DNA of 55,504 nucleotides from an uncultured Rhodospirillaceae bacterium. Its GTDB lineage: Bacteria; Pseudomonadota; Alphaproteobacteria; GCA-2731375. Shown here in pieces: positions 2,271 to 54,710 of the stretch (position 1 is its first letter; each line of letters opens with the position of its first letter). Location: the NCBI GenBank assembly GCA_964507245.1, contig CAZDQC010000006.1, positions 1 to 55,504 on the forward strand. The letters are read 5' to 3'. The position numbers and the translations under genes are program-made. The notes below the pieces were generated by a model. That model did no database searches and had not been told where the DNA came from. It saw only the letters and a list, made by a program, of their open reading frames with translations.

Positions 2271-2271
2271 A

Positions 2272-6749: not shown

Positions 6750-6808
6750 CTAGTATCTTGGCCAGAGCAATCTGGCATCTGGGACCTCGTTATGGCCCAG
6801 TTCACGGA

Positions 6809-30669: not shown

Positions 30670-30696
30670 GGCAAACCCCGTTTGACTTAGCCGTAT

Positions 30697-31611: not shown

Positions 31612-31618
31612 AGCCCGG

Positions 31619-32341: not shown

Positions 32342-32740
32342 ATCGCCAACTCCAATTGGTGCCAACAATGACTTAGCGCAGGAAAAATTCCAGCCACGCC
32401 CGCCTGTATATTGTAAACTTCGCCACCAGATTCTGTCGCCCAGGAGACTGAAACTATACCATTTACGACATTTTCTGCTGAAGGCCGGACGAGACGCCAT
32501 GGCGCAAAATCCACTTTCAACTCAATGCCAAAATTCGGAATTACAGTCAGTTTGATCGCTGGTTCGGGGTCCACCCAAATTCGCTTGGGCACGCCCGTGT
32601 TTGATCACCACCTGTTGAAGGTAGGTAGAAGAGTAGGCGTCAAGGGTGCCACGAAATTGCTGCGGCCATCCGTCTTGACCGAGTTGTGACATGGGCGATA
32701 CGTTGGCCAACAATAAAAAGTACAATCGTGGAGGAGAGTT

Positions 32741-33907: not shown

Positions 33908-33909
33908 AC

Positions 33910-34410: not shown

Positions 34411-34838
34411 GAATGAACGACGCGACAGGGCAAGCGGCCGAAATCAAGCCCGGGACAACCCTTCCGGTGGAAGAGAAATTCTTCACCGCAGCCGACCTGG
34501 TGATGTACGGCGCCGCGACCTGGGACTGGCACCGGCTGCACTACGACACGACGTTCACCAATGCAATGAACCTACCTGCCCCCGTAATCGACGGTCAAAT
34601 TTACGGCGCCCTATTCGCCAAACAAGCGGTCGGCTGGCTTGGCCCTCGCGCGTTCGTGCAACGCATGGGATTTCGCATGCGTTCTATGGCCTTTGCAGAC
34701 GATACACTGCGTACAGAAGGCGAAGTGTCGGAAGTACGGTCAGAGGAGAGCGCCGATGTCATTGTGTTGCAACAGCGCCTAACTTGCGGCGAACGGTTAA
34801 TTGCAGAGGCCACCACAGAGATCCGGCTGTCTCGGTAG
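34407..34838 (+). CDS. MaoC-like hot-dog (R)-specific enoyl-CoA hydratase subunit
   Basis: 143 aa with VMYGAATWDWHRLHYDTTFTNAMNLPAPVIDGQ (hydratase-2 D/H motif region). Confidence 0.75.
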   Translation: MRMNDATGQAAEIKPGTTLPVEEKFFTAADLVMYGAATWDWHRLHYDTTFTNAMNLPAPVIDGQIYGALFAKQAVGWLGPRAFVQRMGFRMRSMAFADDTLRTEGEVSEVRSEESADVIVLQQRLTCGERLIAEATTEIRLSR

Positions 34839-34844
34839 GCTTTC

Positions 34845-35834: not shown

Positions 35835-35858
35835 CTACGTCTCTCCCTTCAGCTGAAT

Positions 35859-37412: not shown

Positions 37413-37527
37413 AAGCTAAGGCTGCCTCTGACAGGTGTCAAACGCAGTATTTGCTAGGTCAGCATGATTGTTCTTTGGAATATGCTGTGGTCTATATTGC
37501 ACACTTGATTAAACTGTGGAGGCTGGC

Positions 37528-38697: not shown

Positions 38698-38975
38698 GAG
38701 CTGAAGGGATAACTATAATCGCTTTAGACAAATTTAGATGTGAAATCTGAATATCTGCGTATGTTCTACAGTTAGTGTAGCGCGTCATAGTCAATGTCAT
38801 AGCGCATTATGTTCAGCGAGGATTCTTGCCTTTCGGACCTGCATTAGCAACTTGTCGATGACTTGCCAGATTAACCAGCTGCTGAATGCGTCTAGGGCAC
38901 TGCTAATCTATTAAGCGGGTGTATACGGCAACCAATTGAAATGAACGTACTTCGTGCGGAAAATACCAATTTCGG

Positions 38976-40184
38976 CTATGAACTGGCGACCACAGGTGAA
39001 TTGCTGCGGCCATATAGAAATGCCCGTGCAATCCAACTGTGAAAAGCATGCGTGGGTTGATCCATCACGGGGGAAAATATACCACCATCAAAACCGATAG
39101 AGTGACGGCCCCGCTGCATACTTTCTACTGCAGTTCTATCCTCGACAAAAATTGATTGCCACAGCTCCCTATTTGCGATCCGTTGGGTATGGTAACCATG
39201 ATCGCGCACCCTTCTATCAAAATAGTAAATTTGCATCCTTTCTCTAGTGCGGTAGGGGCCGTCCGGTTGGATTAGGACGGCATAAAAATGATCGCGATGA
39301 AGGCCTAAAAGAACGTTGGGGAAAAGGGCAACATATTCAGCACCACTATGCCAAAACGGCGGAAGATTAGCGGCATTCGGTATCGCAGGAGCATCCTCAG
39401 AAAACTTAGGTTCATAACATCTGCTGCCCTGCCCAGAATAGGATTGATGAACGATGCCGTAATGCTGCTCCAGTGGAGAATACCGGTTCAATTCTGGATG
39501 CACCCAAGGCAGATGGTAGGCCTCGCAATAATTCTCGACCGCCAGCTTCCAGTTGCATTCAAGCTCAATTTCGATACGACAATCGGCGCCGGTATCGACG
39601 AGATCTATTTCTGCAAAAACCTTCCAGCGTTCAGCAAGGGGCTTAATGTAATCAGCAAACGGTTGAGCGGTACCGGACAGATCAACGAATATCAGGCCAA
39701 ACCATTCGGCACTGCGCACCTTGCATAGTCCGATGTCATTTTTGTTGAAACCGGGACAAGTGTGTTTACCTGCGCCACCTATATGCGGTGTGCCGATCAA
39801 TTGACCTTCTAAGTCATAGGTCCAACTGTGATAAGGGCAGATAATGACTTTGCCGGAGTTGATCGACGCCTCGACTAATATTCTGCCTCGATGCCGACAC
39901 ACATTATGAAATACTTGAACTACATCATCTGTATTACGGATCAGAAGCAGCTGCGATCCAGAGAATTCAATCGGAAATAAATCGCCTCTATTTGGCACAT
40001 CCAATGCAAATCCCACACATGCCCATCCGTCTTTGAAGACCCGTTGCTGTTCAATTTCCATCGTTGCGGCGTCGGTATAACAGGCATTGGGTAAGCCGCG
40101 TGCCGTTTCTATGGGTTCAAGTACCTTCTCCATAGCAACGGCCAATGTGCCGGAAATTTCACTTGAACGGGGACAAACATCCAT
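38976..40184 (-). CDS. Rieske [2Fe-2S] non-heme-iron oxygenase alpha subunit (GbcA/Stc2/CntA-like class)
   Basis: Rieske motif CRHRGRIL...CPYHSWTY and a catalytic-domain EAYHLPWVHP. The start is uncertain (ATG 40184, TTG 40196 or ATG 40133). Confidence 0.8.
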   Translation of the reverse strand: MDVCPRSSEISGTLAVAMEKVLEPIETARGLPNACYTDAATMEIEQQRVFKDGWACVGFALDVPNRGDLFPIEFSGSQLLLIRNTDDVVQVFHNVCRHRGRILVEASINSGKVIICPYHSWTYDLEGQLIGTPHIGGAGKHTCPGFNKNDIGLCKVRSAEWFGLIFVDLSGTAQPFADYIKPLAERWKVFAEIDLVDTGADCRIEIELECNWKLAVENYCEAYHLPWVHPELNRYSPLEQHYGIVHQSYSGQGSRCYEPKFSEDAPAIPNAANLPPFWHSGAEYVALFPNVLLGLHRDHFYAVLIQPDGPYRTRERMQIYYFDRRVRDHGYHTQRIANRELWQSIFVEDRTAVESMQRGRHSIGFDGGIFSPVMDQPTHAFHSWIARAFLYGRSNSPVVASS

Positions 40185-40449
40185 AGCGGCTTCCAAGCAG
40201 AGATATCATAGCGATTGATACTAGGCTTGTTATGACCCAGCCACAATCACCACTCTCAGAATTGCAAAAGGAATTATTTGTATATTGGTGATTAAAATCG
40301 CCATCTTAATGTCATATCTAAAATTCTATCTGCACAGCAAGGGTCCAGATTTTTCGGGCCAGCAAGGATCCATAGCGTTACTCCGGAACGTACGGGAACT
40401 TCCCGGTCCTGAATTGCACCAGCTCAATGTTCGCCGTCCAAATTCAGAA

Positions 40450-41400
40450 TTAGACTGACGTCTGATTCTTTAGCGGGCTCAAAGCAGCTATATGGTCTGT
40501 TGTGAGACCGCAGCACCCACCAACAATTTGCAAACCGTTTTCAATCCATTCAGACGCAAACTGTTTCAGCTCATCGGGCGGAATAATATCTTCAAACTGC
40601 CAGTGCGGTGATTTGAAATAACCAGAATCGGGGTAGGCCAGCAGCGGCCCTTCATAGGCCTGACCCAAAATATTGAGTGCATCTCCAATGACGTTCGCTT
40701 GCGTATGCATTACGCCAGCAGCCGATACTTTAAAATCCTGAAGCGCCTGGATTATGTCCGAGAAAGGAATATCTCTATCCTGGGCAAAACTGAGGACCCG
40801 TCCATCGTCGTGCCGCCGGGCTGAAAAGCCGGCCCATATAGGAAGACCAGTCTCTTTTGCTGCCGTAAATGCAGCTCCCATCCTTTCAGGATAATACATC
40901 ATCTCCAAAAGGATCAGATCACACCCCTGCCCTCGCAGAAGCATAGCTAATTCACCAAAGGCATCATCCATTTCGCCTTGAGAATGTAATCTCGTCAAAT
41001 CTGGAATTGCTGTACCTTTTGCAACGGCTCCCCGATGGGATAAAGATCCTGCGATCAAGACATCATCTCGTCCACTTGCGTCCCGGCCTCGATGTGCTGC
41101 ATCTACCGCCGCGTTATTGATATCTATGAAATGTTTGGCCAACCCCGCCGGTTCAAGCAGTAAGCGTGACGAGGAAAAAGTATTTGTCGTAATGATATCA
41201 GCACCCGCGGCGATGTAATCTCTATGAATTGACTCAAGAATGCTCTTGTATTCAAGCGATGCCGCACCACACCAGGCTTCAGTGTCCATAGGCACGCCAC
41301 GCCGTTCGAGCTCTGTACCTGTCCCTCCGTCAAGAATGAGAATGCCGCCATTTTGTAATTGGCGCTTGGCGTTTTCGTAGCTCGTCAACGAAGTCTCCAA
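40450..41400 (-). CDS. homocysteine S-methyltransferase family protein (BHMT/MmuM-like)
   Basis: ILDGGTGTELERRG at the N-terminus, TNTF, and a C-terminal VGGCCGLTTDHI Zn motif. Confidence 0.8.
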   Translation of the reverse strand: METSLTSYENAKRQLQNGGILILDGGTGTELERRGVPMDTEAWCGAASLEYKSILESIHRDYIAAGADIITTNTFSSSRLLLEPAGLAKHFIDINNAAVDAAHRGRDASGRDDVLIAGSLSHRGAVAKGTAIPDLTRLHSQGEMDDAFGELAMLLRGQGCDLILLEMMYYPERMGAAFTAAKETGLPIWAGFSARRHDDGRVLSFAQDRDIPFSDIIQALQDFKVSAAGVMHTQANVIGDALNILGQAYEGPLLAYPDSGYFKSPHWQFEDIIPPDELKQFASEWIENGLQIVGGCCGLTTDHIAALSPLKNQTSV

Positions 41401-41505
41401 AGTGGTTCAGTCGTCATCAATGAAACTCCGCAACACATTGTCAGGCTGGACAAATCACCTAGTTATCTAGATCCATTACAATAGTCGTAATTCGTGAATC
41501 CTAAT

Positions 41506-41895
41506 TTATTTCCGTTTCTTCTCCTCTGTCGGCCCGCCGGCATCCCGCCATGCCGGAAGTCCGCCAAATAATTGTGCCACATTTTTGATACCCATATCCT
41601 GAAGTGATTTGGCGCAGAGGGCCGAGCGCCATTCTGCGTTACAGAACAAAACATACGTCTTGTCAGCATCACTGTAGACATCTCGATGGTACGGACTTTC
41701 GGGGTCGAACCAGAATTCGATCATGCCGCGTGGCGCGTGCCGAGCGCCCTTGATAGTACCACTTTTCTCGACTTCGCGAATATCTCGCACGTCGACAAAT
41801 ACCAATTCGCCGTCACCATACCGTGGTAATGCCTCATCCACTGTCAAAGACATGATTTCGGTCTGCGCCTGTTCAGCAAGATCCTTAATACCCAT
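41506..41895 (-). CDS. single-domain rhodanese-like sulfurtransferase
   Basis: 129 aa. Active-site loop FCNAEWRSA (CxxxxR[ST]). VFVDVRDIREVE is typical of the rhodanese fold. Confidence 0.8.
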   Translation of the reverse strand: MGIKDLAEQAQTEIMSLTVDEALPRYGDGELVFVDVRDIREVEKSGTIKGARHAPRGMIEFWFDPESPYHRDVYSDADKTYVLFCNAEWRSALCAKSLQDMGIKNVAQLFGGLPAWRDAGGPTEEKKRK

Positions 41896-42418
41896 GTGCC
41901 TATTTCACCCCAATATATAGCTTGTCAATCATGACTATCTGGGAATGTCCCGAAGGTAAACAAAGATGTGTTGTCATAAACCTTGAATTCAAATTCCTAG
42001 ATACCCCCTATTTGACCGACCCAGTTAGAATTTAGGTGATTGACTGGCCTGATTGACGCCAGCAGAACGCTTACACCCAGGCCACGAGTTAGCGTCGCGA
42101 AGTAAAAATATTTGTCGTAAGCTATAATCAAAAAGAGACTGCTCGCAGAAGTATGTCCTCGCGGGTTGTATGTGAGTTACGATTATTGGTGTTGAGTTAA
42201 TGCTGAACGGCACAGTTGATGCGTATAGCTATTTTTGTGCTGGCGAACAGGCAGGATTTTTAGATCACCATAGACCTGGTTGTTGGCTGGCAAGGGGGAG
42301 CCACCGAATTTCGGGCGCCTGGCTAAAGTCTTCAAAAATAGTAGTCCTGAGTCAACCATTTGTTGTCTAACCTCAAAATCGGCAATGAATTAAACCACCT
42401 AAAATAGAAAGAGAGAAA

Positions 42419-43726
42419 ATGGCAACCGATCTGGCTAAATATGCTGAGGATAATGGTATTAGATTTTTCCTCATGAATTTCACTGACCTATTTGGTTTGC
42501 AGCGGTCGAAACTGGTGCCCGCAGCCGCTATTAGTGATATGCAGAAATCTGGCGCTGGATTTGCTGGTTTTGCTGCCTGGTTGGACATGACGCCGGCACA
42601 TCCCGATATGTTTGCCGTACCGGATGGGGATGCAGTCATCCAGTTGCCGTGGAAACCGGAAATAGCCTGGGTTCCAGGTGATCTTTACATGAACAATGAG
42701 AAAGTCTCCCAAGCTCCACGCAATGTCCTGCAAACTGTAATGGAGAAGGCGGCGGGAAAAGGATTGTTATTGAAAACCGGTGTCGAGCCGGAGTTCCATC
42801 TCATCAATGAAGATGGTTCCGCCATTTCCGATGAACGTGATATTCAAGAAAAGCCATGTTACGACCAATCTGCGCTGATGCGTCGATACGATGTCATCTC
42901 TGAAATTTGTTCGTCGTTGGAACAAATGGGATGGGGTCCATACCAAAATGATCACGAAGATGCCAACGGCCAGTTCGAAATTAATTGGCATTACAATAAC
43001 TGCCTTAATACCGCCGACCAACTTTGCTTTTTTCGCTTTCTCGTAAAATCAATCTCGGAAAAACATGGCCTACGAGCAACCTTCATGCCTAAACCCTTCA
43101 GTCATCTTACCGGGAACGGCTGCCACGTACATGCGTCATTGTGGAGCCTAGATGAAAAAACCTGCCTAACTCACGACCCTAAAAATGAACTAGGTATCTC
43201 TGAATTGGGTTATCACTTTCTTGGGGGGGTACTTGCCCACGCCAAAGGGCTCGCGGCCATAACAAATCCAACTGTTAATTCCTATAAACGCATCAATGCT
43301 CCAACAACCGCCTCCGGTTCTACTTGGGCACCGAACACCATTACATTTGGTGGCAATAACCGCACCCATATGGTGCGGGTACCAGATGAAGGTAGGTTCG
43401 AATTCCGTTTAGCTGACGGCGCAGCAAACCCATATTTGTTAATGGCGGGTTATCTTTCAGCCGGATTAGATGGTATCGACAATAAAACAAATCCGGGAAA
43501 ACGGCTTGACATCGACATGTATGCTGAAGGCCACAAAATTAGGGGTGCAAAAAAGCTACCGCTTTATTTGATCGATGCCATTCGCGAATTCACTAAGGAT
43601 CGCGTACTGCGAGCGGCCCTGGGCGAAGAATTTTGTGATGCCTACATAAAGTTAAAGACGGACAATTGGGATCAGTATTCCCGCCACCTTACACAGTGGG
43701 AGCGCGACAACACACTTGATTGCTAA
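42419..43726 (+). CDS. glutamine synthetase family protein (type III GlnT / gamma-glutamylalkylamide synthetase-like)
   Basis: 435 aa with FLMNFTDLFGLQRSKLVPA, GVEPEFHLI, NGCHVHASLW and SYKRI. Length and N-terminus match the GlnT/GmaS-size class rather than GlnA. Confidence 0.8.
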   Translation: MATDLAKYAEDNGIRFFLMNFTDLFGLQRSKLVPAAAISDMQKSGAGFAGFAAWLDMTPAHPDMFAVPDGDAVIQLPWKPEIAWVPGDLYMNNEKVSQAPRNVLQTVMEKAAGKGLLLKTGVEPEFHLINEDGSAISDERDIQEKPCYDQSALMRRYDVISEICSSLEQMGWGPYQNDHEDANGQFEINWHYNNCLNTADQLCFFRFLVKSISEKHGLRATFMPKPFSHLTGNGCHVHASLWSLDEKTCLTHDPKNELGISELGYHFLGGVLAHAKGLAAITNPTVNSYKRINAPTTASGSTWAPNTITFGGNNRTHMVRVPDEGRFEFRLADGAANPYLLMAGYLSAGLDGIDNKTNPGKRLDIDMYAEGHKIRGAKKLPLYLIDAIREFTKDRVLRAALGEEFCDAYIKLKTDNWDQYSRHLTQWERDNTLDC

Positions 43727-43794
43727 ATAACTAACCATATTTGAAATATTTTGCCTTAGGCTAGTCCCGGCTGACTTTGTGATACGGCCTGCCG

Positions 43795-44100
43795 CTACCG
43801 TACTGGTTTTGGCGTACTATTTGAAGATCGATGCCAGTTTGGTAGCCGCCTCTTATCAGGCATGTGTATGATTTCGTTTTTTTTTCGTGCGGCGCTAAGC
43901 GCGGAATCTGTACAAGCACCTATTCCCCTGTTCAATAATTCATCCAAAATTTTCGGATTCTTATAATCTCGAGTAAGCAGCGAATAATATTGCTGGCACA
44001 GATAGGCTGAAGATTTCCAGGATATATCTTCTGGGCTCGTGGCACACCCCATCAACGCATTCAACGCGGCAAATAGAAGTGCGGGCGGTAGAGATCGCAT
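43795..44100 (-). CDS. hypothetical small lipoprotein
   Basis: Signal peptide plus lipobox MRSLPPALLFAALNALMGC. I recognise no family. Confidence 0.4.
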   Translation of the reverse strand: MRSLPPALLFAALNALMGCATSPEDISWKSSAYLCQQYYSLLTRDYKNPKILDELLNRGIGACTDSALSAARKKNEIIHMPDKRRLPNWHRSSNSTPKPVR

Positions 44101-44375
44101 TCAAATACTATACCCGAGGTGAGCGCCAAGCGACCACTAACAGTGCAAATACCAGTGCCTACTGATTACATTTCTTAAACTTCATCAGACAAAATTTGGA
44201 CTTCACCTTCTTGGCATCCGCAGAAAGCAAATAGAAATCCTGAGTTCCGTAATCGGGAACGCGTCCCTATCGTTTATGTATACAAAGGCATGAGAGGCAC
44301 TCCAACAGGTACTGGAGTTTATTCTATTTTGTGAGATCACTTAATTAGACCATCTAACAAATTTGGGACTATCGT

Positions 44376-45215
44376 TCAGATTTGCGCCTCCAAGAAATCC
44401 ATAACGCGCACAAATACGGCACTATCTGAATTAGCCAATGCCTGGCAAATGCTAAAGTGGTCGAGGCCCGCAGCAATTAGCACCTGGGACATGTGCCCGG
44501 CTGCTCGAAGAGCTATGTTGAATTGCTGTGTCTGGTCAAGAAAACCCTTGGTCTCCCGTCCTCCTACCACGCAAAGCATCGGTGGAAGTGGGCGGCTCAA
44601 GTGGTAGAATGGACTTAATCTGTGCGCGGTGTTCGCATCCATCGCCAAATCGTCGTTGATACTAGTTTGCCGCAGTGGTCCAAGGTCAAATATCCCGCTG
44701 ACCGGTATAACTGCTTTAATTTCAATTTCCTCCACACCGTGTGCTCGCCAAACTTCCGATGCAGCCCAAGCAGCCATGTGCCCGCCCGCAGAATGTCCAC
44801 AAAGGACTATCCGGTCTGCACGCCCACCATAGCTGGCGGCATTGTCAGCAATGAAGATTATGGCCCGCAGCACCTGTGCGACGATTTCCGGTACAGTGAA
44901 TTCGGGACGCAACCCATAGTCAACATTGGCAGCGACAAAACCTCGGTCGGCAAAGGGTTCGCAGACTGCAAGAAATGTATCTTTTTCTAGGGCTCGCCAG
45001 TAGCCACCATGGATGAATATAAACACCGGTGCTCCGCCTTCCTGGGTGAAAACGTCAATACGCTCTCGCGACGTTGCTCCATATGTAAGGTCATGAAGAA
45101 GATCAGGCCGTGATCGCAATGCCTCGCTACGCCTGTGTAGTTCAGTATAAACTTCTTCGCGTGTCCCTGAACGACCTCTGAGGGAATATAACTCCTCCAG
45201 CTCAGCGTCGCTCAC
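44376..45215 (-). CDS. alpha/beta hydrolase (arylformamidase/esterase-lipase type)
   Basis: Oxyanion motif FIFIHGGYW and nucleophile elbow LCGHSAGGHMA. Confidence 0.75.
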   Translation of the reverse strand: MSDAELEELYSLRGRSGTREEVYTELHRRSEALRSRPDLLHDLTYGATSRERIDVFTQEGGAPVFIFIHGGYWRALEKDTFLAVCEPFADRGFVAANVDYGLRPEFTVPEIVAQVLRAIIFIADNAASYGGRADRIVLCGHSAGGHMAAWAASEVWRAHGVEEIEIKAVIPVSGIFDLGPLRQTSINDDLAMDANTAHRLSPFYHLSRPLPPMLCVVGGRETKGFLDQTQQFNIALRAAGHMSQVLIAAGLDHFSICQALANSDSAVFVRVMDFLEAQI

Positions 45216-45224
45216 TTGGCACGC

Positions 45225-46121
45225 TCATACGATGCTGTAATTGGGTATATCAATTGATAGGTCTTGCAGTTTTTTTTGTGTCGCGGTCAAAAAGCTGGCT
45301 AGAGCTTGTGTTTGCTGCACTCCGTCAGCGCAGCCCAAGCCAGCAAATGCCGCGTGCTCTTCGGCAATCCTTTCTTCGTCGGCGACGCCGGACGGTGCTA
45401 AGAACGGCGTCAGATAACCGCTAAGAATGACTGCATCAACAGCTCGTACGATCTCGTCTTTCGCTGCCTCTCGGTCGACATCATCCCAGGAATTGACGCG
45501 GTCAGTCACGAAATCCCAACCAAACGCTGCATGCCGCCGCTTGTCTTTGGCGATAAGACCCAAGGTAGTGGCGATAGCTTCATTCTTAACTGAGTTTTGA
45601 TGCAGCTCGTAAAACATCGCTTCGACACCGATCTTGATAGCACAATGGGCCAGGACGTAAGCATCGATCGACGTATCCGCGTGCAGAATCCGCTGAGATA
45701 GGTCCAAATTCAAAGTTGCGGCATAAGCAGCCGAAGCGGGTTTCGAAATATAACCGCCATATGCCTCGGCCATCCTCTGCATCACAGCTATATGGCACGC
45801 CTCTTGTGTATTACGCACGGTAAGGAAAAATTTTGGTGAAATTGGTCGATCCAACTCCAGGCAAAGCCGGATCAGCGTTGCTGGCGTTTCCGACAGATAG
45901 CCGTAGGCAGCCCAAAGGCGACGGCTCCACATCAGGCGGGCGGCATCCTTATCCCGTTGCGTAAGGCTGTCGACTCTAAGCCGGTCCCAGGGGATGTCCG
46001 AAACTGGGTTCCAATTTGCACTCTTCTCTCTGCGATAGGCGTCTTCCAGAGACCCCACCTGTTGACCTAATCGAACAGGAAAGCGCCGTTCTACCAGCAT
46101 TTTTGAGTGCGGTTGCGGCAT
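45225..46121 (-). CDS. ferritin-like di-iron-fold protein, paralogue B (second ExxH degenerate)
   Basis: Colinear with the upstream paralogue (DIPWDRL..., WSRRLWAAYGYLSETPA, TQEACH), but the second motif reads KDKRRH instead of RDEVRH. The start is uncertain (ATG 46121 preferred; the ORF is open to 46181). Confidence 0.6.
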   Translation of the reverse strand: MPQPHSKMLVERRFPVRLGQQVGSLEDAYRREKSANWNPVSDIPWDRLRVDSLTQRDKDAARLMWSRRLWAAYGYLSETPATLIRLCLELDRPISPKFFLTVRNTQEACHIAVMQRMAEAYGGYISKPASAAYAATLNLDLSQRILHADTSIDAYVLAHCAIKIGVEAMFYELHQNSVKNEAIATTLGLIAKDKRRHAAFGWDFVTDRVNSWDDVDREAAKDEIVRAVDAVILSGYLTPFLAPSGVADEERIAEEHAAFAGLGCADGVQQTQALASFLTATQKKLQDLSIDIPNYSIV

Positions 46122-46137
46122 TGTTATGAACAACCGT

Positions 46138-47067
46138 TCAAATGGTCCCCGTGCGTGGATGATGGAAGGGCGGCAGTTCACAGCCCCAGGCCCTCATCTG
46201 CTTACGGATGCGCTGCACCGATGCGATGAAAATTGGTTTCTCTACTTTCTCTACCGTCGACCCCAGTCCAGCCTCGTATGTGATGCGATCGCATTCGACG
46301 TCTGCACGGGTTGCCTCTGAATCGTCCTGAGCCAGCCAGGAACTATGGTAGCCGTTCATTTCTACGTTTTGGATCATCACCGTGACGGCATCCTCGACCT
46401 GCTTTAGTTCCGCTGGGTCTAAATGCGGTACACGCTTCGCCATGTAGTGCCATCCAAAAGCACAATGGCGCACCTCATCGCGCGTGATGCCACGGCTACA
46501 TGCCCGAGCGATGGGATCAATGGTAACATCACTCAAATGCTTGAAAACATCGAAAGCGACTTCCTCGGCGGCACAGACGAGAGCGGCAATCAGAGCTTCT
46601 AGCAAACACTCCGGGTCCAGCGCCATTGCGCGCACCCCATGCGTCACCACATTGCCTTCATATTCGCGCAACGGCGGTGCTTCAATATAACCGCCACAGG
46701 TCTCTGCCATCAGGTAGCAAACCTCAGCATGGCGAGCTTCCTCCTGCGAGCGAATAGTGAAAAACAGACCTAGGTCCGTTTCCCGACTTTCCCGGGCAAA
46801 TCGAATTTGAATTGCTGGGCTTTCTGAAATAGCGCCATATTCCAGCCATGCCCGGCGGCTCCAAGCATTACGCGCGGCCCATAGTTGCTCTTCTGTATAT
46901 TTTGATTTTTCAAATTTATCCCACGGAATGTCCTTGCGAGGGTCCCACTGGTTCTTGGCAGCCGCATGGAAAAGATCTCGAACACTGTTAATCGAGTGTG
47001 AAAGATCAATGGGAAACCGGTTTTCCGGCACATCGAGTATGGTATCAGCTGTCGAAATTTGAGGCAT
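46138..47067 (-). CDS. ferritin-like di-iron carboxylate oxygenase-type protein, paralogue A
   Basis: Canonical E...ExxH...E...ExxH pattern: WLEYGAISES, SQEEARH, CAAEEVAFDV, RDEVRHCAFGWHY. Confidence 0.65.
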   Translation of the reverse strand: MPQISTADTILDVPENRFPIDLSHSINSVRDLFHAAAKNQWDPRKDIPWDKFEKSKYTEEQLWAARNAWSRRAWLEYGAISESPAIQIRFARESRETDLGLFFTIRSQEEARHAEVCYLMAETCGGYIEAPPLREYEGNVVTHGVRAMALDPECLLEALIAALVCAAEEVAFDVFKHLSDVTIDPIARACSRGITRDEVRHCAFGWHYMAKRVPHLDPAELKQVEDAVTVMIQNVEMNGYHSSWLAQDDSEATRADVECDRITYEAGLGSTVEKVEKPIFIASVQRIRKQMRAWGCELPPFHHPRTGTI

Positions 47068-47200
47068 AACAACATCTAAGGTTAGTTAAAGGCCCGGCAG
47101 TTGACGTCGTAGTCCTAGTTACCAAACCAATTTCAGAGATCCTGACAACCCGCGAATGCAAAAGAAATGTGAAGTCTCCCATTCTTCGTAACCATCTCGC

Positions 47201-47629
47201 CTATGCATATATCCTATCTGCAACCCCATAAATGAGAACGGTCCATACAATTGCAAAGCAAAGGGGTGCGAGGTAACCCTCTTTAGACATTTTCTCACCA
47301 TTTGTTGTTCTGAAGTCCGACATTTCGACGGTCCAATACCCAATAATTAACGCGGTTATCGATTGCAGAAACCCATAAGCAAAGATCATCCAATGTCCCG
47401 AAATTCCGTCGAACAACATGTAAATCATGACAATAACAAATGGCAACATGAACGTTCCTGAAAAGCGTGTCATGAAAGCACCAGACTGGTCGATACCATA
47501 TTTTTGAAGAAAATTTCTTGTCATAAATATTGTTTGAAAACAATAAAAAGCAATTCCTACCAAAATAATTACGTAAATCGCCAAAAATATTACACCATTG
47601 AATTCTTCAACCATAATAGATATCCCCAA
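47201..47629 (-). CDS. hypothetical small integral membrane protein (about 4 TM segments)
   Basis: 142 aa with four hydrophobic stretches (VIFLAIYVIILVGIAFYCF, FMLPFVIVMIYMLF, WMIFAYGFLQSITALIIGYW, LAPLCFAIVWTVLIYGV). Very A+T-rich coding sequence. Confidence 0.5.
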   Translation of the reverse strand: MGISIMVEEFNGVIFLAIYVIILVGIAFYCFQTIFMTRNFLQKYGIDQSGAFMTRFSGTFMLPFVIVMIYMLFDGISGHWMIFAYGFLQSITALIIGYWTVEMSDFRTTNGEKMSKEGYLAPLCFAIVWTVLIYGVADRIYA

Positions 47630-47862
47630 TATTCACACTAGGTTTTTAACAAATATTGTATATTAAAACTAGAGCTAGCAAGCTAACAGATACTATCCTA
47701 ATGCCATTATTTTGAAAAGGCGATAGGTTTATAGCCGTTATTGAAAATTCTTTTCGTGTATTGGATATTTGGTCGCTAACCAGAGCTGGCTGCAAGGAGC
47801 GAAAACGAAAAATTACTTGTGCAATTATCCCGATGTTTCCCAAACTCGCCGGCATCAAGCAA

Positions 47863-48624
47863 CTAGGTAATCTCCGCCGGGGCCTGCGGTACTAAACCCC
47901 AAAATTCCGGATCGTGTCCAAAATAAATCCGCACACCCGCCTGTTGCAGAATTCGAATGCGTTTCAAGCTTTCTAGCATTTCTTCGCGGTCGTGAACTAC
48001 CTTAGGCAGGTGTAAATGTTCTAGCGTCTGACGCAAATAACAGGCATCGCCAGCCAACAGTACATCGCCGGTACTCAGCCGCACCTTCAGGGATTGATGC
48101 CCTGGCGTGTGGCCGTAAGTGGGAATGCAGATAACGCTGCCGTCGCCGAAAAGGTCATGTTCGCCGTCAATCAGTTTCATATCATGGCCATGGTCGTAGT
48201 CGGCTAGCGAAAATCCGTTTGTTTTCATTAGGTCCGGATCATGGCCCGCCTGCCATTCCCGCGCCTGCACTATCAGTTGGGCATTTGTCACCTGGTAGTT
48301 GCCACCAGCGTGATCGAAGTGCAGATGAGAATTTATCAAATAACGCACTTTAGCAACGTCTACGCCACAGCATTCCAACCGAGCTCCAAGTTCTTCTCCA
48401 GCCCTGAACTCGGGCCTAAAATGCTTGGTGATAATCTGTGCCCGCCTATCTACCGGGTCCTGCAAGTCCGCATGCAATCCACTATCGAATAGCGCCTGGC
48501 CTTTGGGGTGGTCAATTAGATAGCACGGTACCGGCAGTCGAATTTCGCCCTCTTCGCCATCCAGGAACATCTCCATCGGCATAGTCAACCAGCCACAGGT
48601 CATGGCGTAAAGGCGAACGGTCAT
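47863..48624 (-). CDS. MBL-fold metallo-hydrolase, N-acyl-homoserine-lactonase-like family
   Basis: HxHxDH motif NSHLHFDHAGGN. The N-terminal YAMTCGWLTMPMEMFL...PVPCYLIDHPKG pattern is typical of AiiB/AttM-like lactonases. Confidence 0.85.
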   Translation of the reverse strand: MTVRLYAMTCGWLTMPMEMFLDGEEGEIRLPVPCYLIDHPKGQALFDSGLHADLQDPVDRRAQIITKHFRPEFRAGEELGARLECCGVDVAKVRYLINSHLHFDHAGGNYQVTNAQLIVQAREWQAGHDPDLMKTNGFSLADYDHGHDMKLIDGEHDLFGDGSVICIPTYGHTPGHQSLKVRLSTGDVLLAGDACYLRQTLEHLHLPKVVHDREEMLESLKRIRILQQAGVRIYFGHDPEFWGLVPQAPAEIT

Positions 48625-48867
48625 CTCGATTGATCCTTATTATGTTGTCAGACCCAAAGCATAATTCGGCTGGTTATAACAGAGCCAATAGCTTCAAGAC
48701 TTGAACGATGCTTGCATTTGAGTTCTGGCCAAAGCTAGCGACGCCGACGGTAGTCTCTATTTTCTGGTAACAAGATATTTGAGATCACTTAACAGTTTAT
48801 CTGATTGTGATTGTGAAGATTCTTGATTTGGCTTGGTCCAAATGCAACGGCTATGGCCCTGCGCCAA

Positions 48868-49917
48868 TTATTTGTAACGTGAACCTTCTTGCAGTTCTTT
48901 GCCTGGCCGGGCAATTGCAGACACTGCCCGACCTAAGTCAACCTTACCGACGATCGCGTCATTATCGTCAATAACAACACCTGTACTTTCTTTGGCACTA
49001 ATTAAGATCTGCAATGCATCTTCTATTGGCATGGTTAATGTAAGTTTAGGGCCCGATGCGTTGACCGTTTTTTCCATAATCGACCGCACCTCAATGACCC
49101 TACTTCGGTTAATATCCTTAATAAAATCGGCAATATAATCATCCGCCGGATTCATAATTATTTCTTGCGGATCACCTAGTTGGATTACGACGCCATCCCG
49201 TAGGATTGCGATCTGATCACCAATCCTCAAAGCTTCATCCAGATCATGGGTTATGAAAATAATGGTTTTGTGTAATTCTTCCTGTAAACCCAGCAAGACA
49301 TCTTGCATATCTGTTCGGATAAGCGGATCCAGTGCTGAAAAAGCTTCATCCATGAGAAGAATTTCTGCATCTGTCGCCATCGCACGGGCTAAACCTACCC
49401 GTTGCCGCATACCTCCAGACAGTTGAGCCGGATAATGACTTTCAAACCCAGCAAGGCCCACTCGTTCAATCCAGTGCTGGCTTCGCTCGTATGCAGCAGT
49501 CCCTTTGACACCCTGAATAGTCAAACCATAGGCAACATTTTGAGTTACCGTACGGTGTGGTAGTAAGCCGAAATTCTGGAAAACCATAGATGTCGTGTGT
49601 CGCCGAAATTCACGCAACCGCAACTGCGACATTGCCAAGACATCTTCACCATCAATTACTACTTCCCCTGAGGTTGGTTCAATCAAGCGATTAATGTGCC
49701 GAATTAGTGTAGACTTACCTGATCCAGAAAGCCCCATAATCACCTGTATACGATGCGCCGGCACATCAATATTGATATCTCTCAGGCCTAGTACGTGTCC
49801 ATGTTGATCCAACAAATCATGCTTAGAAATTCCATCTTGAACCAATCCCATCACGCCATTCGGATTAGGCCCAAAAATCTTAAATAGGTTAGAAATCGTG
49901 ACTTTTACATCAGTCAT
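48868..49917 (-). CDS. proV: glycine-betaine/proline-betaine-type ABC transporter ATPase with C-terminal CBS domains
   Basis: Walker A GLSGSGKST, signature LSGGMRQRVGLARA, and a CBS-like tail. ATG 49917 overlaps the proW stop (ATGACTGA). Confidence 0.9.
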   Translation of the reverse strand: MTDVKVTISNLFKIFGPNPNGVMGLVQDGISKHDLLDQHGHVLGLRDINIDVPAHRIQVIMGLSGSGKSTLIRHINRLIEPTSGEVVIDGEDVLAMSQLRLREFRRHTTSMVFQNFGLLPHRTVTQNVAYGLTIQGVKGTAAYERSQHWIERVGLAGFESHYPAQLSGGMRQRVGLARAMATDAEILLMDEAFSALDPLIRTDMQDVLLGLQEELHKTIIFITHDLDEALRIGDQIAILRDGVVIQLGDPQEIIMNPADDYIADFIKDINRSRVIEVRSIMEKTVNASGPKLTLTMPIEDALQILISAKESTGVVIDDNDAIVGKVDLGRAVSAIARPGKELQEGSRYK

Positions 49918-50800
49918 GAAGGATTCCCTGACGATGCTGTTGCAATCGCTGGCCATATCTCTGGGATACGCGGTCGAAGATGACGGCAAGCGCCACAATC
50001 GCAAGCCCATTCAATAATCCAAGTGCTAGATATTGGTTACTGATTGCGCGCAGAACTGGCAAACCAAGACCCTTCACCCCAATCATTGACGCAATGACCA
50101 CCATGGCCAGGGCCATCATGATGGTTTGGTTAACACCGGCAAAAATATTTGGTAAAGCGAGCGGCATTTGCACGCCAAACAGGCGCTGCCAGTAACTTGC
50201 ACCGAACGCATCAGCTGCCTCTAGGATTTCTTTGTCAACTAAACGTATGCCAAGATTAGTCAGGCGCACGATGGGTGGCATCGCATAAATGCATACCGCT
50301 ATCAACCCAGGCACCTTCCCTATACCCAGAAGCATTACCACCGGAATTAGATATACGAAACTTGGAATTGTCTGCATAACGTCAAGAACTGGCGTAATAA
50401 CCATTTGCACGCGATCCGAACGCGCCATCCAAATACCGAGAGGAATTCCGAAGCTGATACAAAGCAATGTCGCTACTGAAATGATGGCCAGGGTTGCCAT
50501 CGTGTCTTCCCACATGCCCAAATAGCCAATAACAATAAAGCATAATGCGGTGCCAACGACAATGAGCCAGCTGCGGGCGCCAATCCATGTTAGACCAACA
50601 ATTACCAGAATGACGATGGGCCAAGGGGTATTGATTAAGAGTCTTTCTAACCAAACAAGAAAAAACAATAGAGGCTCAAAAAAATTTTCGAGCCCTTCAC
50701 CATAAGCGCGTGAAAAATCACGAAAGCCAAGATCAATGGCCTTTTTCATGTCGCGCAATTCCTGGCGCTCCATTGTCGGAAATTCGTCGAGCCAGTCCAT
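49910..50800 (-). CDS. proW: glycine-betaine/proline-betaine-type ABC transporter permease
   Basis: 296 aa, multi-TM, with the BPD-transport EAA-loop region EAADAFGASYWQRLFGVQMPLALP. Confidence 0.9.
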   Translation of the reverse strand: MDWLDEFPTMERQELRDMKKAIDLGFRDFSRAYGEGLENFFEPLLFFLVWLERLLINTPWPIVILVIVGLTWIGARSWLIVVGTALCFIVIGYLGMWEDTMATLAIISVATLLCISFGIPLGIWMARSDRVQMVITPVLDVMQTIPSFVYLIPVVMLLGIGKVPGLIAVCIYAMPPIVRLTNLGIRLVDKEILEAADAFGASYWQRLFGVQMPLALPNIFAGVNQTIMMALAMVVIASMIGVKGLGLPVLRAISNQYLALGLLNGLAIVALAVIFDRVSQRYGQRLQQHRQGILHD

Positions 50801-50880
50801 TAATTAAGTCTCGTCACAAACGAGCACAGTCGGGCCTGCTGAACCAATTCGGCTAGCAGGCCCGAAACTTATGCTAATTT

Positions 50881-51888
50881 TTATAAACCAGCCTTAACTT
50901 TTGCAGCGACGTCTGCCGGAACCCATTTAGTCCACACGGCTTCGTGCTTCTTCAAAAATTCCACAGCCGCGTCTGCGCCACCAGCTTGGTTGTCACCCAT
51001 GTAAACTAGCATGCCGTTCATGACATCACCGGGGTAAACACGATTCTTTAGAAATTCTGCGCCGGCCCCACTACGTTTCATAAATTTATCTGTAACGACG
51101 GTGTTCACGACAGACTTAGTCCAGGCGGATGGTTTCGGATCAGCACATTCCTGTTCTGGCTTAACGATGCAGCCATCCCAGTTTTCCTTGCCGGCGAAGG
51201 GCACTCCGAAATCAAGCTTAACCATTTTATATTTACCGATCATAGCGGTCGGTGACCAGTAATACCCGAACCAGTTCTCGCCGCGCTCAACGGCCTTAGC
51301 CATAGAACCGTCTAAACCTGCCGCTGAGCCTGGATCAACTAGAATCCAGCCCTTCTTTTTCATCTCGAAAGCTCTAAACAGGTTATTATTGGCCAGTTGG
51401 CATCCCCAACCTGCAGGGCAACCTATAAACGCGCCCTTTGAAGAATCTTCTGGATGCGGGAACAACTGAGGATTATTCAAGACATCAAGTGCAGTCTTCA
51501 GTTCAGGGTGCTTTTTCACGGTGTGAGGAGGAAGCCACCAGCCTTCTCCAAGCCCAGTAATTGGACCGGTATTAACGGCATGCAGACGACCCTCAGCAAC
51601 TGCCTTTTTCAGAGGATTGGCAACGGCATTTGCCCAAAGTTCACCAGCGATGTCCGGTTGTCCTTTTTCATTCATCGAGGTGAATGTCGGCATTGTCGCG
51701 CCAGCCACCATCTCAACACTGCAGCCATAGCCCTTTTCCAAGATAATTTTATCAACATTGGCCATAAATTCTGCTGATGCCCAGTTCATTTCGGCAATAG
51801 TGATATTGCCGCAGCCTGCGTTTGCCTGGGTAGAAATTCCCAGCATCAACGCTAAACTGCAAATCGTTGAAATCAAAACCCTACTCAT
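50881..51888 (-). CDS. proX: glycine-betaine-type ABC transporter substrate-binding protein
   Basis: Signal peptide MSRVLISTICSLALMLGISTQANA. ProX/OpuAC-like body rich in Trp (NWASAEF, GEGWWLP, FGYYWSP), consistent with an aromatic cage for quaternary amines. Confidence 0.85.
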   Translation of the reverse strand: MSRVLISTICSLALMLGISTQANAGCGNITIAEMNWASAEFMANVDKIILEKGYGCSVEMVAGATMPTFTSMNEKGQPDIAGELWANAVANPLKKAVAEGRLHAVNTGPITGLGEGWWLPPHTVKKHPELKTALDVLNNPQLFPHPEDSSKGAFIGCPAGWGCQLANNNLFRAFEMKKKGWILVDPGSAAGLDGSMAKAVERGENWFGYYWSPTAMIGKYKMVKLDFGVPFAGKENWDGCIVKPEQECADPKPSAWTKSVVNTVVTDKFMKRSGAGAEFLKNRVYPGDVMNGMLVYMGDNQAGGADAAVEFLKKHEAVWTKWVPADVAAKVKAGL

Positions 51889-52380
51889 AGTTTATGCCTC
51901 CTCGTTGAATTTCTTATTTTCTTTCAATGCAATTTGTACCCAAATTTCTCCAAGCTTGGAAGAACTAAGATTAGACCTACTTATTTGTACAATATAGCAA
52001 TCTGCTCCTTTTGTATTCCAGTCTCTAACCACACCGCCAAATGTATTTTGAATTTGATAGATTTTGCCAACGGTTATTGGGCTATCGAAATACACCACCA
52101 GTATTGGCTCAGTGCATAATTGGATGCTGCCTGATCAACAAAATCTGTCACTACCAGTTCAAACCCAAATACGAAAAGTCGAACGTAGTCATTTCCATGC
52201 CCTTCTCCCGGCACATACACAAACCATGGCTATGAACACCATCCCATTCGGCCAGCATTTTTTGATCGGGCTAAGGGTGCTGCGTTCACCACACTTTCAA
52301 ATGCCCCTTCCAGCACAGATTGAGCAAGCGTTCTTAATTCTCTGAATCTAAATTACGTTTCTAGCAAAGGAGCTAATTCT

Positions 52381-53013
52381 CTAGCAATTGTCAATTAGTC
52401 CCGCACCAGCACCTTTTGCGCGAGATATTTCGCTTGACGTCACATATGTCTTAGCAGCTAACGCTTCTATAGCCCGCCAGGCTTCCATGCCGATCTCAAT
52501 ATCGTTGGTCCGTGTGTTTGCAATGCCGGTTGTTTGATTAGATTGACGACAGGTCATAAACACATCAGTCCCTTCCTTGGGAGGTGAACCCCGTAGACTT
52601 AAACCTTGTTTCGATATAGATGCCGTGGCCCCACCCGAAAATCTAAGAATTAGTTCAATACCAAAATCTTGGCACCCAATACCCGCCTGTCCCATTAAGA
52701 GGAATGGTGAGTCTACATTGCAAAGGTGTATTTCATCTACCGATGCATCGCTGGCCAGGAGATCGACACTCGAAGGTCCGCAAAAGGCAACACGCGCCTC
52801 TAAAAATATCTGAGTATGACCCTCCCTTATTTTAGCCCCTGGTCTATTAAATCCTTCCTTAATTGCCATCAATACTGCGCCAACACCGTCCTGGTCCTGA
52901 CCGATAAGCCATGCGCCAGCCTGTGAGGCATCTTCCGCCAAACCAACTGGCAAGCCTGTTCCTATTGCTGCCTTCTTGAGCATGTCCTTGATCTCGTTCA
53001 GCGAGAAAATCAA
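52381..53013 (-). CDS. hypothetical protein, possibly DUF3726-like
   Basis: 210 aa. The N-terminal SLNEIKDMLKKAAIGTGLPVGLAEDASQAGAWL and C-terminal SRAKGAGAGLIDN resemble what I recall of DUF3726, but this is unverified. The TTG start overlaps the upstream stop (TTGA); the first ATG is 30 nt in. Confidence 0.45.
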   Translation of the reverse strand: MIFSLNEIKDMLKKAAIGTGLPVGLAEDASQAGAWLIGQDQDGVGAVLMAIKEGFNRPGAKIREGHTQIFLEARVAFCGPSSVDLLASDASVDEIHLCNVDSPFLLMGQAGIGCQDFGIELILRFSGGATASISKQGLSLRGSPPKEGTDVFMTCRQSNQTTGIANTRTNDIEIGMEAWRAIEALAAKTYVTSSEISRAKGAGAGLIDNC

Positions 53014-54710
53014 AGATCATTTCCAATTACTGGAAGCCACCAATCATCGGCGCGATTGCTCGAAATTTCGCCAATTAGTGGCGCCCCTTGAAATAATGCG
53101 ATACGGGTCCATCGATCTGATTTTGGGTCAAATTTCGAAGCACCAAAGAATGAAAGTTTGCAACGAAGCATATCAATCGGCATGCAGTCTTCACCAATCA
53201 AGTTGTCGCGGATTTCAGAATATAGGTGAATTTCAGTCGCTTGTACGCGCCTCGTAATGTAGCGATGGCATGGATGTTGAATGAGAAATTCTGCAACCGT
53301 ATTTGCGTTTGGTGTTAGTTTTAGATCACTGGCCAATGACTGAACACGTCTTGCCAAATCAAGTGGAAGTTCCAGATCGGCTCCTGGCTCTTCCAAACGG
53401 ACGCCTAGCCGCGGCTCTAACTTCTCTTCGGATACATACCAAAAATAATGTTCTGCTGCCGCCTTCTCAAAATCTATGTCTAGAGCCCACTGATAATTTT
53501 TTTCAATCAATTCACTCAACTCAGCAACAGATTTTGCAGGCCCAAGAAGAAGCGTAGAGTTGCTTGACATTTCGTCAGCAAGATCATCGATTAACTGACC
53601 ATGGGGTTCCATAATTAGTGCAACGATGAGTTCTTGGCATTCTTGAGACCAACAAGCAGAATGCCGTACCAAACGGTCCCAGGGATAGGGCGCTTCTAGA
53701 CCTCCGAGAGTTGTCCAAGTTTCAACCTCTTTAAATTCACGCCTCAAAGTTTTAATGCGACCCATCTGGCGCACATCTTCCACATTCCATTGGTCAAGAT
53801 GTCGCCGCGCACGGATGATGAGTTTTCTAATATTTTTTTCACATTCCGTGTCTGAAATTTCAATGGCCCTCAATCGGGCAAGCGCAGTTTCCCGCGCCAT
53901 CATCCAGTTGTTAATTAGGATGGGATGATTGACAAGAAAAGGGGCCATGCCAAGGCCGGTTGCATTGCCTATACCCAAATGCCGCATTAGTCGCCGGTCA
54001 AGTGGTTTAAATGTCTCGGGGGCCCGACATTTGGCAATATATTCCACAAGATCGTGTGTAAACCCCCGTATCAACCATACCGTTAGCATTTCTGCCTGAA
54101 ATGGAGCAAGAAATCCTGGTCGGTCGACGATACGTTGCCGATCAGCAGTTCCAAATTTACCATTTCCATAGACTGCCGTTGTGCGCATTAAGTAACCAAC
54201 TGATGAGATCAAATCTTCGTCGGGTTGTTTACCGTTTGCTAAATTATCAACAACATGTTCAAAAATGCGCACCGATTTGTTGGCTCGGCTCAATATGAGG
54301 TCGCTTGCCATAAAGCGACCAGCCTCCTGCATTGGTGCATTATTCTCGAGGCGTTCTAACTCAGCCTTGTTAGGAATTCCGTCATAAAGAACGTAGCTGG
54401 TATCCCATGCCTCTGCGATAACTCGATCAGTACGACGCTCCGGCGCAAGTATTATCGAAAAGGCGACAAGACTGTAATAATGTCCGCCAAGACAAACAGA
54501 ATAGATCGCGCGCCCGAAACCTTCTTTATCAATTTCCCACAATGGCCGTATTATTTTAGCCTTTTGATCTGCTAAAAAGCGGATCATAGTGCGCGAGAAA
54601 CTCAGTCTTGTTGGAAAGAAGGCTCCCATGCGGCTAAGGCGCATTACTTCTTCTGCTGGACGTAATGCGACTTGGGGACAGGGTTTGTTAGATTTTGCGC
54701 TTGTTGTCAA
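53010..54710 (-). CDS. conserved-looking hypothetical protein, 566 aa, no family recognised
   Basis: Long uninterrupted ORF with normal protein-like composition and no TM or signal sequence. It is translationally coupled to the 210-aa gene. I found no motif I can assign. Confidence 0.6.
   Translation of the reverse strand: MTTSAKSNKPCPQVALRPAEEVMRLSRMGAFFPTRLSFSRTMIRFLADQKAKIIRPLWEIDKEGFGRAIYSVCLGGHYYSLVAFSIILAPERRTDRVIAEAWDTSYVLYDGIPNKAELERLENNAPMQEAGRFMASDLILSRANKSVRIFEHVVDNLANGKQPDEDLISSVGYLMRTTAVYGNGKFGTADRQRIVDRPGFLAPFQAEMLTVWLIRGFTHDLVEYIAKCRAPETFKPLDRRLMRHLGIGNATGLGMAPFLVNHPILINNWMMARETALARLRAIEISDTECEKNIRKLIIRARRHLDQWNVEDVRQMGRIKTLRREFKEVETWTTLGGLEAPYPWDRLVRHSACWSQECQELIVALIMEPHGQLIDDLADEMSSNSTLLLGPAKSVAELSELIEKNYQWALDIDFEKAAAEHYFWYVSEEKLEPRLGVRLEEPGADLELPLDLARRVQSLASDLKLTPNANTVAEFLIQHPCHRYITRRVQATEIHLYSEIRDNLIGEDCMPIDMLRCKLSFFGASKFDPKSDRWTRIALFQGAPLIGEISSNRADDWWLPVIGNDL

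Follow-up and report, generated by a model that had tools for sequence, protein, structure and literature searches.

Why should a bacterium encode two neighbouring ferritin-like proteins when only one of them has a complete dimetal site, and on what would such a pair act? The question is raised by a 55,504-nucleotide stretch of contig CAZDQC010000006.1 from an uncultured Rhodospirillaceae bacterium (the window), in which two such genes stand side by side; the upstream gene is here called A and the downstream gene B, with residues numbered as in the window proteins. The favoured answer, held with moderate confidence, is that A and B form a heterodimeric R2-like dimetal-carboxylate oxidase or oxygenase in which A is active and B is disabled, and that the pair carries out the first step of a catabolic module that also includes a hydrolase encoded directly downstream. 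An earlier, sequence-only reading of the same DNA had compared the pair to PaaA/PaaC and to hydroxylase alpha/beta subunits, and had linked it to a nearby ProVWX importer.

The two genes and their products

Exactly two colinear open reading frames (ORFs) are found on the minus strand within 45225-47067, encoding proteins of 309 and 298 aa, in agreement with the two adjacent proteins of about 300 aa described earlier. The motifs that had been quoted for them (DIPWD and WSRR.W..YG..SE(S/T)PA, with QEEARH and RDEVRH in A and TQEACH and KDKRRH in B) are all present in the translations. The pair and the gene that follows it are arranged as listed.

46138-47067, minus strand: subunit A, 309 aa; R2/AurF-like ferritin fold with a complete dimetal site (E76, E110, H113, E168, E198, H201)
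46122-46137, minus strand: A-B spacer, 16 nt
45225-46121, minus strand: subunit B, 298 aa; degenerate paralogue with Lys194, Ala72 and Lys163-Ile164
44376-45215, minus strand: alpha/beta serine hydrolase (BD-FAE/Abhydrolase_3; Pfam BD-FAE 2e-23), starting 9 nt past B

In the ORF list B begins at a GTG at 46181; however, the N-terminus MPQPHSKMLVERRFP is conserved, and orthologues are mostly 298 aa long and open with M..SKMLVERRFP, so that the ATG at 46121, 16 nt past the A stop, is the real start. The short spacer is consistent with co-transcription and coupled translation. Low-level transcripts across A, B and the hydrolase, the A/B junction included, are present in marine metatranscriptomes, with contigs touching or spanning the junction at 46129-46302, 46135-46308 and 45942-46131. 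A scan of 43700-52300 for promoters and terminators gave sites no more frequent than in shuffled sequence, and operon limits are not defined by it. The two proteins are 31% identical across 294 aa (BLASTP, E 5e-37); judged by this alignment, the paralogy that had been claimed for them is far beyond chance.

Metal-ligand status of the two subunits

The clearest difference between the subunits lies in their metal ligands, which were counted in 121 A-type and 120 B-type sequences, the helix-1 ligand being placed at E76 of A by alignment with R2-like ligand-binding oxidase (R2lox).

E76 of A: E in 121/121 A-type sequences; in the B family E 91, A 28, Q 1
E110 of A: E in 121/121 A-type sequences; in the B family E 120/120
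H113 of A: H in 121/121 A-type sequences; in the B family H 114/120
E168 of A: E in 121/121 A-type sequences; in the B family D 88, I 28, other 4
E198 of A: E in 121/121 A-type sequences; in the B family K 120/120
H201 of A: H in 121/121 A-type sequences; in the B family H 120/120

All six dimetal ligands are therefore kept in every A homologue, and the Glu of the second ExxH motif is replaced in B by a lysine (Lys194 in the window protein) that occurs in every B homologue. The substitution that had been noticed in KDKRRH thus stands, and across the alignment it is a family hallmark, not an alignment artefact. Aligning B in full recovers no further ligands; the window protein proves more degenerate than had been seen, with Ala72 at the helix-1 position, Lys163-Ile164 opposite Ala167-Glu168 of A (the helix-3 ligand), and only E107, H110 and H197 left of the six. 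It belongs to a marine subclade that shares Ala72, Lys163-Ile164 and Lys194; because three of the four carboxylates are gone, a dimetal site in window B is impossible.

These ligand patterns bear on another view of B, in which it is a separate functional protein, either a mononuclear metalloenzyme, a carrier of substrate or product, or a transient metallochaperone or assembly factor for A. Most B proteins outside the marine clade do keep E76, E110, H113 and H201, and many motifs away from the ligands are conserved in B as well (RFPL, WSRR.W, SETPA and GLG); a chaperone role has also been proposed for yeast Rnr4 itself (PMC3824934). The marine-clade genes remain under selection even though three of four carboxylates have been lost, however, and remoter degenerate relatives have lost their histidines as well while keeping the lysine. 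A stoichiometric partner also fits better with the 1:1 adjacency of the genes in 86/86 loci and with the short spacer, and an independent role for B is judged unlikely.

Several further residues of A are conserved in their own right. Three cysteines lie beside ligands, namely C117 (H113+4, 121/121), C165 (E168-3, 120/121) and C202 (H201+1, 120/121); the first, encoded at 46717-46719 of the window, occupies the position of the radical tyrosine in ribonucleotide reductase (RNR) R2. The corresponding positions of B hold F/M/C/Y, A and A, respectively. Histidines conserved in A only are H143 and H241, both invariant, and H177 (119/121).

Fold and family assignment

The earlier statement that the pair could be given no named family is upheld, and the two proteins do not fall together into a well-characterised one. 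Pfam AurF (PF11583) matches A at 29.8 bits against a gathering cut-off of 29.6, over residues 109-233 only; B has no Pfam match, and NCBIfam holds nothing for either protein. Homologues carry public names such as 'ferritin-like domain-containing protein' or 'hypothetical', with 'rubrerythrin' in some sources, and literature searches found no paper on the A/B family. A single-sequence search of the PDB with A returned nothing beyond matches at E~0.5 to aldehyde decarbonylase. A profile of both families reached R2lox (7qbk, 1.8e-4; 7qbp, 2.2e-4) and an aldehyde-deformylating oxygenase (ADO; 1.5e-3), and no PaaA/PaaC or AurF chain was found by it at E<=1.

The AlphaFold models are of high confidence (pLDDT 91 and pTM 0.89 for A; pLDDT 92.6 and pTM 0.91 for B), and in Foldseek searches RNR R2 proteins and R2lox were nearest to both, with TM-scores of 0.5-0.68 and identities of 14-20%. 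The best PDB folds for A were R2, R2lox and VlmB (TM 0.5-0.63), and R2lox was the best match for B (TM 0.66); further matches included VlmB, which is an AurF-like azoxy synthase, and a protein similar to ADO, and PaaA/PaaC was absent from the top 50 for both models. The part of the PaaA/PaaC comparison that survives is the architecture, a four-helix-bundle dimetal pair with a catalytic and a degenerate member, but the fold relatives are RNR R2, R2lox and AurF-like proteins. The likeness to hydroxylase alpha/beta pairs fails, as there is no Pfam match of that kind and such proteins are absent from the top fold matches. Profile matches and models together place the pair in the R2/R2lox/AurF branch of the ferritin superfamily, where no characterised or solved protein is close to it and no curated family lies near. 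The best description for it is an uncharacterised new branch of R2-like oxidases, presumably heterodimeric.

The conserved operon and its hydrolase

Gene neighbourhoods were compared in 86 non-redundant loci, to which reference proteins were mapped with tblastn. Every one of the 86 has A and B side by side, and the hydrolase comes next, either directly or after Liv genes, in 70/74. A HutC/GntR regulator lies upstream in 67/75 loci and a Liv-type (HAAT) binding protein in 64/75; LivHMGF genes separate B from the hydrolase in 68/86, and in 33/70 the hydrolase has RidA after it. The usual operon combines the A-B pair and the hydrolase with a GntR regulator, a Liv-type ABC importer and, in about half of cases, RidA. 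The marine clade has a compact form, A-B-hydrolase, and its transporters vary: an MFS protein is found in L011 (A 94% identical to that of the window) and in L007 (84%), an Opp-type system in L008, and ProXWV in the window itself.

The sequence-only reading overlooked the hydrolase, which is the real conserved partner immediately downstream of the pair. It matches 2pbl (1.9e-28), 9n8r and the Drosophila kynurenine formamidase 4e11 (2.3e-21) in the PDB, and its FIHGGYW and GHSAGGH motifs align with the same motifs in 4e11. HGG[YF]W and GHSAG[GA] occur without exception in the hydrolase orthologues (75/75). The hydrolase is the conserved third gene of the module and the functional partner of the pair. 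That no reductase, ferredoxin or effector gene adjoins the pair, as had been remarked, is true of the window, and none is conserved across the 86 loci.

Loci of the Achromobacter type extend the operon with SDR, ACAD and APH genes and have a gene for an acyl-CoA ligase upstream; this is the gene set known for the catabolism of 4-oxo- and 4-hydroxyacyl-CoA (PMC12440821, PMC11342911). Genes for an ACAD, a ligase and a CoA-transferase are also present a few kb away in the window and its relatives. In L001, one of these loci, a divergent gene at 6438-7727 (minus strand), upstream of the GntR gene and beside the acyl-CoA ligase, encodes a conserved protein of about 429 aa that is matched by neither Pfam nor NCBIfam; orthologues occur in about 15 Burkholderiales loci.

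Remote relatives extend the comparison. In Pigmentiphaga, a single-copy A-like protein (about 40% identical to P0265, the first sequence of the alignment) adjoins a BD-FAE hydrolase and RidA, and the transporters of the locus are of the TctC and TRAP carboxylate types; this supports, independently, a triad of oxidase, hydrolase and RidA that acts on a carboxylate. A second remote singleton has a Liv-type ABC system among its neighbours, along with genes for an aldehyde dehydrogenase, a gamma-glutamyltranspeptidase and an amidohydrolase.

The composition of the operon also bears on whether A/B might be an AurF/CmlI-like N-oxygenase that makes a nitro, azoxy or hydroxylamine natural product and has no part in catabolism. 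The marginal Pfam AurF match of A and the appearance of VlmB among its fold matches would agree with such an enzyme. No biosynthetic genes are conserved around the pair, however, and its constant neighbours (importer, HutC/GntR-type regulator, hydrolase and RidA) are those of a typical catabolic operon. The third His ligand of AurF precedes the last Glu by four residues; A, with Ile194 there, lacks it. A biosynthetic role of this type is very improbable.

Proposed function

Since R2-fold proteins are dimeric, R2 and R2lox among them, and since a precedent exists in yeast Rnr2/Rnr4, A and B are proposed to form an αβ heterodimer of that type with a single O2-activating site, of Fe/Fe or Mn/Fe composition, in A. 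The invariant lysine of B would fill its vestigial metal site. In the yeast pair, active R2 depends on the ligand-deficient paralogue (PMC3824934); B would probably likewise be an obligatory dimer partner of A, needed for folding, for stability or to shape a substrate channel, as Rnr4 is for Rnr2. 

The module would operate in the cytoplasm. Its substrate is predicted to be a small nitrogen-containing organic acid, imported by whichever transporter the genome has, usually the Liv-type ABC system. A/B would oxidise this acid, the likeliest product being an enamine intermediate of N-formyl, N-acyl or ester type, and the formamidase-like hydrolase would then remove the formyl, acyl or ester group that the oxidation has created or exposed. 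Where RidA is present, in about half of the genomes, it would turn the resulting enamine or imine into an oxo-acid and ammonia; the oxo-acid would be activated to its CoA ester and enter acyl-CoA metabolism. AurF and ADO use general cellular reductants, and the absence of a conserved reductase is compatible with such a supply for A/B, or with a four-electron oxidation in which the substrate provides electrons. Paralogy, ligand states, fold class, strict linkage and operon make-up are observed directly; the complex, its oxidase chemistry, the sequence of reactions and the type of substrate are inferred.

Several observations weigh against this scheme. No electron donor is encoded near A/B. Half of the loci lack RidA and 4/74 lack the hydrolase, and the hydrolase family includes ordinary esterases and lipases (esterase and lipase are the labels of 2pbl and 9n8r, its closest solved relatives), so that a formyl group is one option only. 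The matches of the substrate-binding protein are generic, extending to Liv, urea and aromatic-acid binders; an Rfam scan of the window and four loci found no riboswitch, and no named regulator hints at the substrate. Finally, the persistence of E76, E110 and H113 in most non-marine B proteins means that a mononuclear metal site may exist there.

A stronger version of the proposal, which is tentative and rather unlikely, holds that A/B is a self-sufficient, reductase-independent oxidase to which the substrate gives all four electrons, and that it opens an N-heterocycle or turns an N-alkyl group into an N-formyl enamine. If this were true, the module would represent a new aerobic route for a nitrogenous metabolite, running through oxidase, formamidase and RidA to a 4-oxoacid, and the Lys-substituted B would define a new class of obligate metal-free partner proteins of R2 fold. 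Homarine and trigonelline were considered as substrates in view of the marine betaine context and set aside; the published homABCDER pathway uses flavin-type enzymes, and no link to A/B was found.

Ferritin-fold dimetal oxidases perform difficult oxidations, and several of their branches, R2lox included, have no known physiological role. The A/B family has features that are missing from those branches: its chemistry is framed by a conserved operon (importer, regulator, hydrolase and RidA), a dedicated binding protein could be used in substrate screening, and it may provide in bacteria a natural pair of active and inactive subunits comparable to yeast Rnr2/Rnr4. With the substrate identified, a further catabolic pathway would be known from Proteobacteria of soil and rhizosphere (Achromobacter, Variovorax, Bradyrhizobium, Azospirillum and Xanthobacter) and from deep-sea Alphaproteobacteria, and the many proteins annotated as 'ferritin-like domain-containing protein' would gain a function.

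ProVWX and the wider window

In the window the neighbours of the pair are the hydrolase, a metallo-beta-lactamase (MBL) protein, a membrane protein, ProVWX and a type III glutamine synthetase. The suggestion had been made from this arrangement that A/B is a two-subunit oxygenase acting on what ProVWX imports, that is, one dedicated to a quaternary-amine or sulfonium osmolyte. ProX, ProW and ProV are encoded 1.8 kb upstream of the pair on the same strand, the 20 kb around the pair is rich in methylated-amine genes, and ProX is a clear OpuAC protein related to DmpX (7yle, 9e-55), which binds dimethylsulfoniopropionate (DMSP; PMC10030565). ProW/ProV-like genes also lie within 6 kb of the pair in a second locus, L090. 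These two are the only such cases among the 86 loci, however, ProVWX being missing from the other 84; most loci have a Liv-type ABC importer embedded in the operon (68/86), and the closest relatives of the window, L011 and L007, have the pair beside an MFS gene. In the window itself, two unrelated genes lie between proV and A, with three intergenic gaps of 134-244 nt, and metatranscriptomes show expression of proX at 10-100 times the level of A and B. Because both the comparison across loci and the expression of proX relative to A/B speak against it, the ProVWX link is not supported, and an osmolyte-dedicated oxygenase is considered distinctly unlikely. A/B and the hydrolase instead appear, from their shared neighbourhoods, to be a conserved bacterial breakdown module that is unlinked to the nearby importer.

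Other features of this region were also recorded. ProX (proXWV, 48868-51888, minus strand) is by far the most strongly represented of the genes here in metatranscriptomes of marine and hydrothermal origin, where its depth reaches 228 compared to 1-5 for A and B. The two genes between proV and A (47201-47629 and 47863-48624, minus strand) specify a membrane protein of 142 aa that matches no family and an AttM/AiiA-like lactonase of MBL fold, whose NCBIfam AttM match (2e-47) falls below the cut-off. In the other loci, neither was seen beside the pair. Upstream of proX, at 52381-54710 (minus strand), two proteins are encoded, one of 210 aa with DUF3726 and one of 566 aa that is matched by neither Pfam nor NCBIfam; both may belong with the ProXWV importer.

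On the other side of the pair, 29701-43726 looks like a catabolic island for methylated amines and osmolytes, with the following genes.

29701-30669: GbdR-like AraC/DJ-1 regulator
30697-32500: pterin-binding methyltransferase and B12-binding protein
34845-35834: luciferase-like oxidoreductase
35859-38697: acyl-CoA ligase and ACAD
38976-40196: Rieske GbcA-like oxygenase
40450-41400: homocysteine S-methyltransferase
42419-43726: type III glutamine synthetase (gmaS-like)
within 29701-43726: rhodanese

Also in this part of the window, at 32741-33907 (plus strand), is the gene for a 388-aa protein with three tandem RidA/L-PSP domains (three stretches in Pfam), an unusual architecture.

Distribution and evolution

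The superfamily is small. Only 86 representatives were found at E<=1e-30 in an exhaustive profile search of 1.84 billion proteins, and in a scan of one genome per species A/B relatives occur in 213 of 185,579 species. The carriers are mainly Alpha- and Betaproteobacteria with some Gammaproteobacteria, and include Achromobacter, Variovorax, Ottowia, Bradyrhizobium, Xanthobacter and Azospirillum; the nearest relatives of the window are metagenome-assembled genomes of deep-sea Alphaproteobacteria, with A identities of 94% and 90%. A search of a plasmid collection gave one unannotated Paraburkholderia match, which was uninformative. This narrow distribution is one of the points to be set against reading A and B as ordinary iron-storage or oxidative-stress proteins of the rubrerythrin, Dps or bacterioferritin types, as the 'rubrerythrin' and 'ferritin-like protein' labels on some homologues would have it. 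A length of about 300 aa and an R2-type fold are unlike those of 24-mer ferritins or rubrerythrins, and the pair is embedded in an operon of transporter, regulator and hydrolase genes; an ordinary ferritin role is scarcely credible.

The A and B families are reciprocally monophyletic, and therefore a single old duplication gave rise to both. Median identities are 0.66 within A, 0.49 within B and 0.33 between them; in the same loci, the median identity to the window proteins is 61% for A and 37% for B, with A the higher in 90/90. This faster divergence of B is the pattern expected of a catalytic subunit paired with a scaffold subunit. Among 54 full-length representatives of the superfamily, 14 are A-like, 23 carry the lysine and 17 are degenerate in other ways, several of the last having lost their histidines too. 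The disabled partner is thus an old feature that has persisted, with the lysine as its hallmark.

Some loci depart from the usual gene order. Tandem A genes, in the order A-A-B-hydrolase, are found in L044 (2581-5602), L051, L056 and L089, and both A copies of L044 have full ligand sets (QEEARH and QEESRH, AEE, RDEVRH). In the marine relative L007, positions 64-3790, just upstream of A-B-hydrolase, hold four copies of group II intron D1-D4, a reverse transcriptase/maturase gene and transposases. An apparent A-B fusion of 636 aa, P0278, is a frameshifted, garbled gene call and was not used as evidence.

Comparison with known systems

PaaA/PaaC resembles the pair in combining a catalytic ferritin-like subunit with a homologous subunit that lacks metal ligands; A has six of six ligands and window B three of six. 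The systems differ in that neither A nor B matches Pfam PaaA_PaaC at E<=0.01, the top folds being R2 and R2lox instead, and in that no paaB, paaD, paaE or reductase genes surround A/B in the window or the 86 loci. The alpha/beta subunits of soluble di-iron monooxygenases are further removed: A/B has no Phenol_Hydrox-type Pfam match and no conserved reductase, effector or ferredoxin genes, and these proteins are not among its top folds.

R2lox is the best structural match of both proteins (TM 0.62-0.68 for 5omj, 6f6f and 3ee4), has the same ligand set as A (four carboxylates and two histidines) and, like A/B, has no dedicated reductase encoded. Its identity to A and B is only 14-20%, however, and R2lox proteins are single-gene homodimers, unlike the two-gene A/B pair. 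The positions of its Val-Tyr ether cross-link (V72 = E69+3 and Y162 = E167-5, numbered from PDB entry titles, with a register of about +-1) are not conserved either, A having Ala79 (E76+3) and Leu163 (E168-5) there. A Mn/Fe cofactor and a bound fatty-acid ligand are further traits of R2lox. AurF, CmlI and VlmB (PF11583), the only Pfam family touched by A, and that marginally, are likewise ferritin-like oxidases with no dedicated partner reductase gene. They do not match B, and the HxxxExxH motif that includes their third His is absent, A reading G-I194-T-R-D-E198-V-R-H201; they are, moreover, biosynthetic homodimers that act on arylamines or hydrazines, in contrast to an A/B pair in a catabolic operon.

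At the level of the pathway, the kynurenine route (dioxygenase and formamidase) and the Rut pyrimidine pathway (RutA-D) show the same succession of an O2-dependent cleavage or oxidation, an alpha/beta hydrolase or formamidase, and RidA-family handling of enamines and imines. The window hydrolase shares the HGGYW oxyanion-hole and GHSAG nucleophile-elbow motifs of kynurenine formamidase (AFMID-type), its formamidase activity being predicted only. The oxidases of these pathways are unrelated to A/B (haem TDO/IDO and flavin RutA), and the resemblance is an analogy from which a mechanism can be proposed, not evidence of homology.

Because the fold relatives of A/B are RNR R2, R2lox and AurF-like proteins, yeast Rnr2/Rnr4, with which it shares the R2 fold class, is the closest precedent for its architecture. 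In Rnr2/Rnr4, a dimer of paralogues, the dimetal cofactor is assembled by one subunit; its partner is short of key ligands and cannot assemble it, yet is required (PMC3824934). A is not itself an RNR subunit, since Cys117 (121/121) stands at His+4, where R2 has the radical Tyr (Phe in class Ic), and since no NrdA/R1 gene is among the conserved neighbours in the 86 loci, whose context is that of a catabolic operon. The degenerate subunit B differs from Rnr4 in turn by its specific and invariant change of Glu to Lys.

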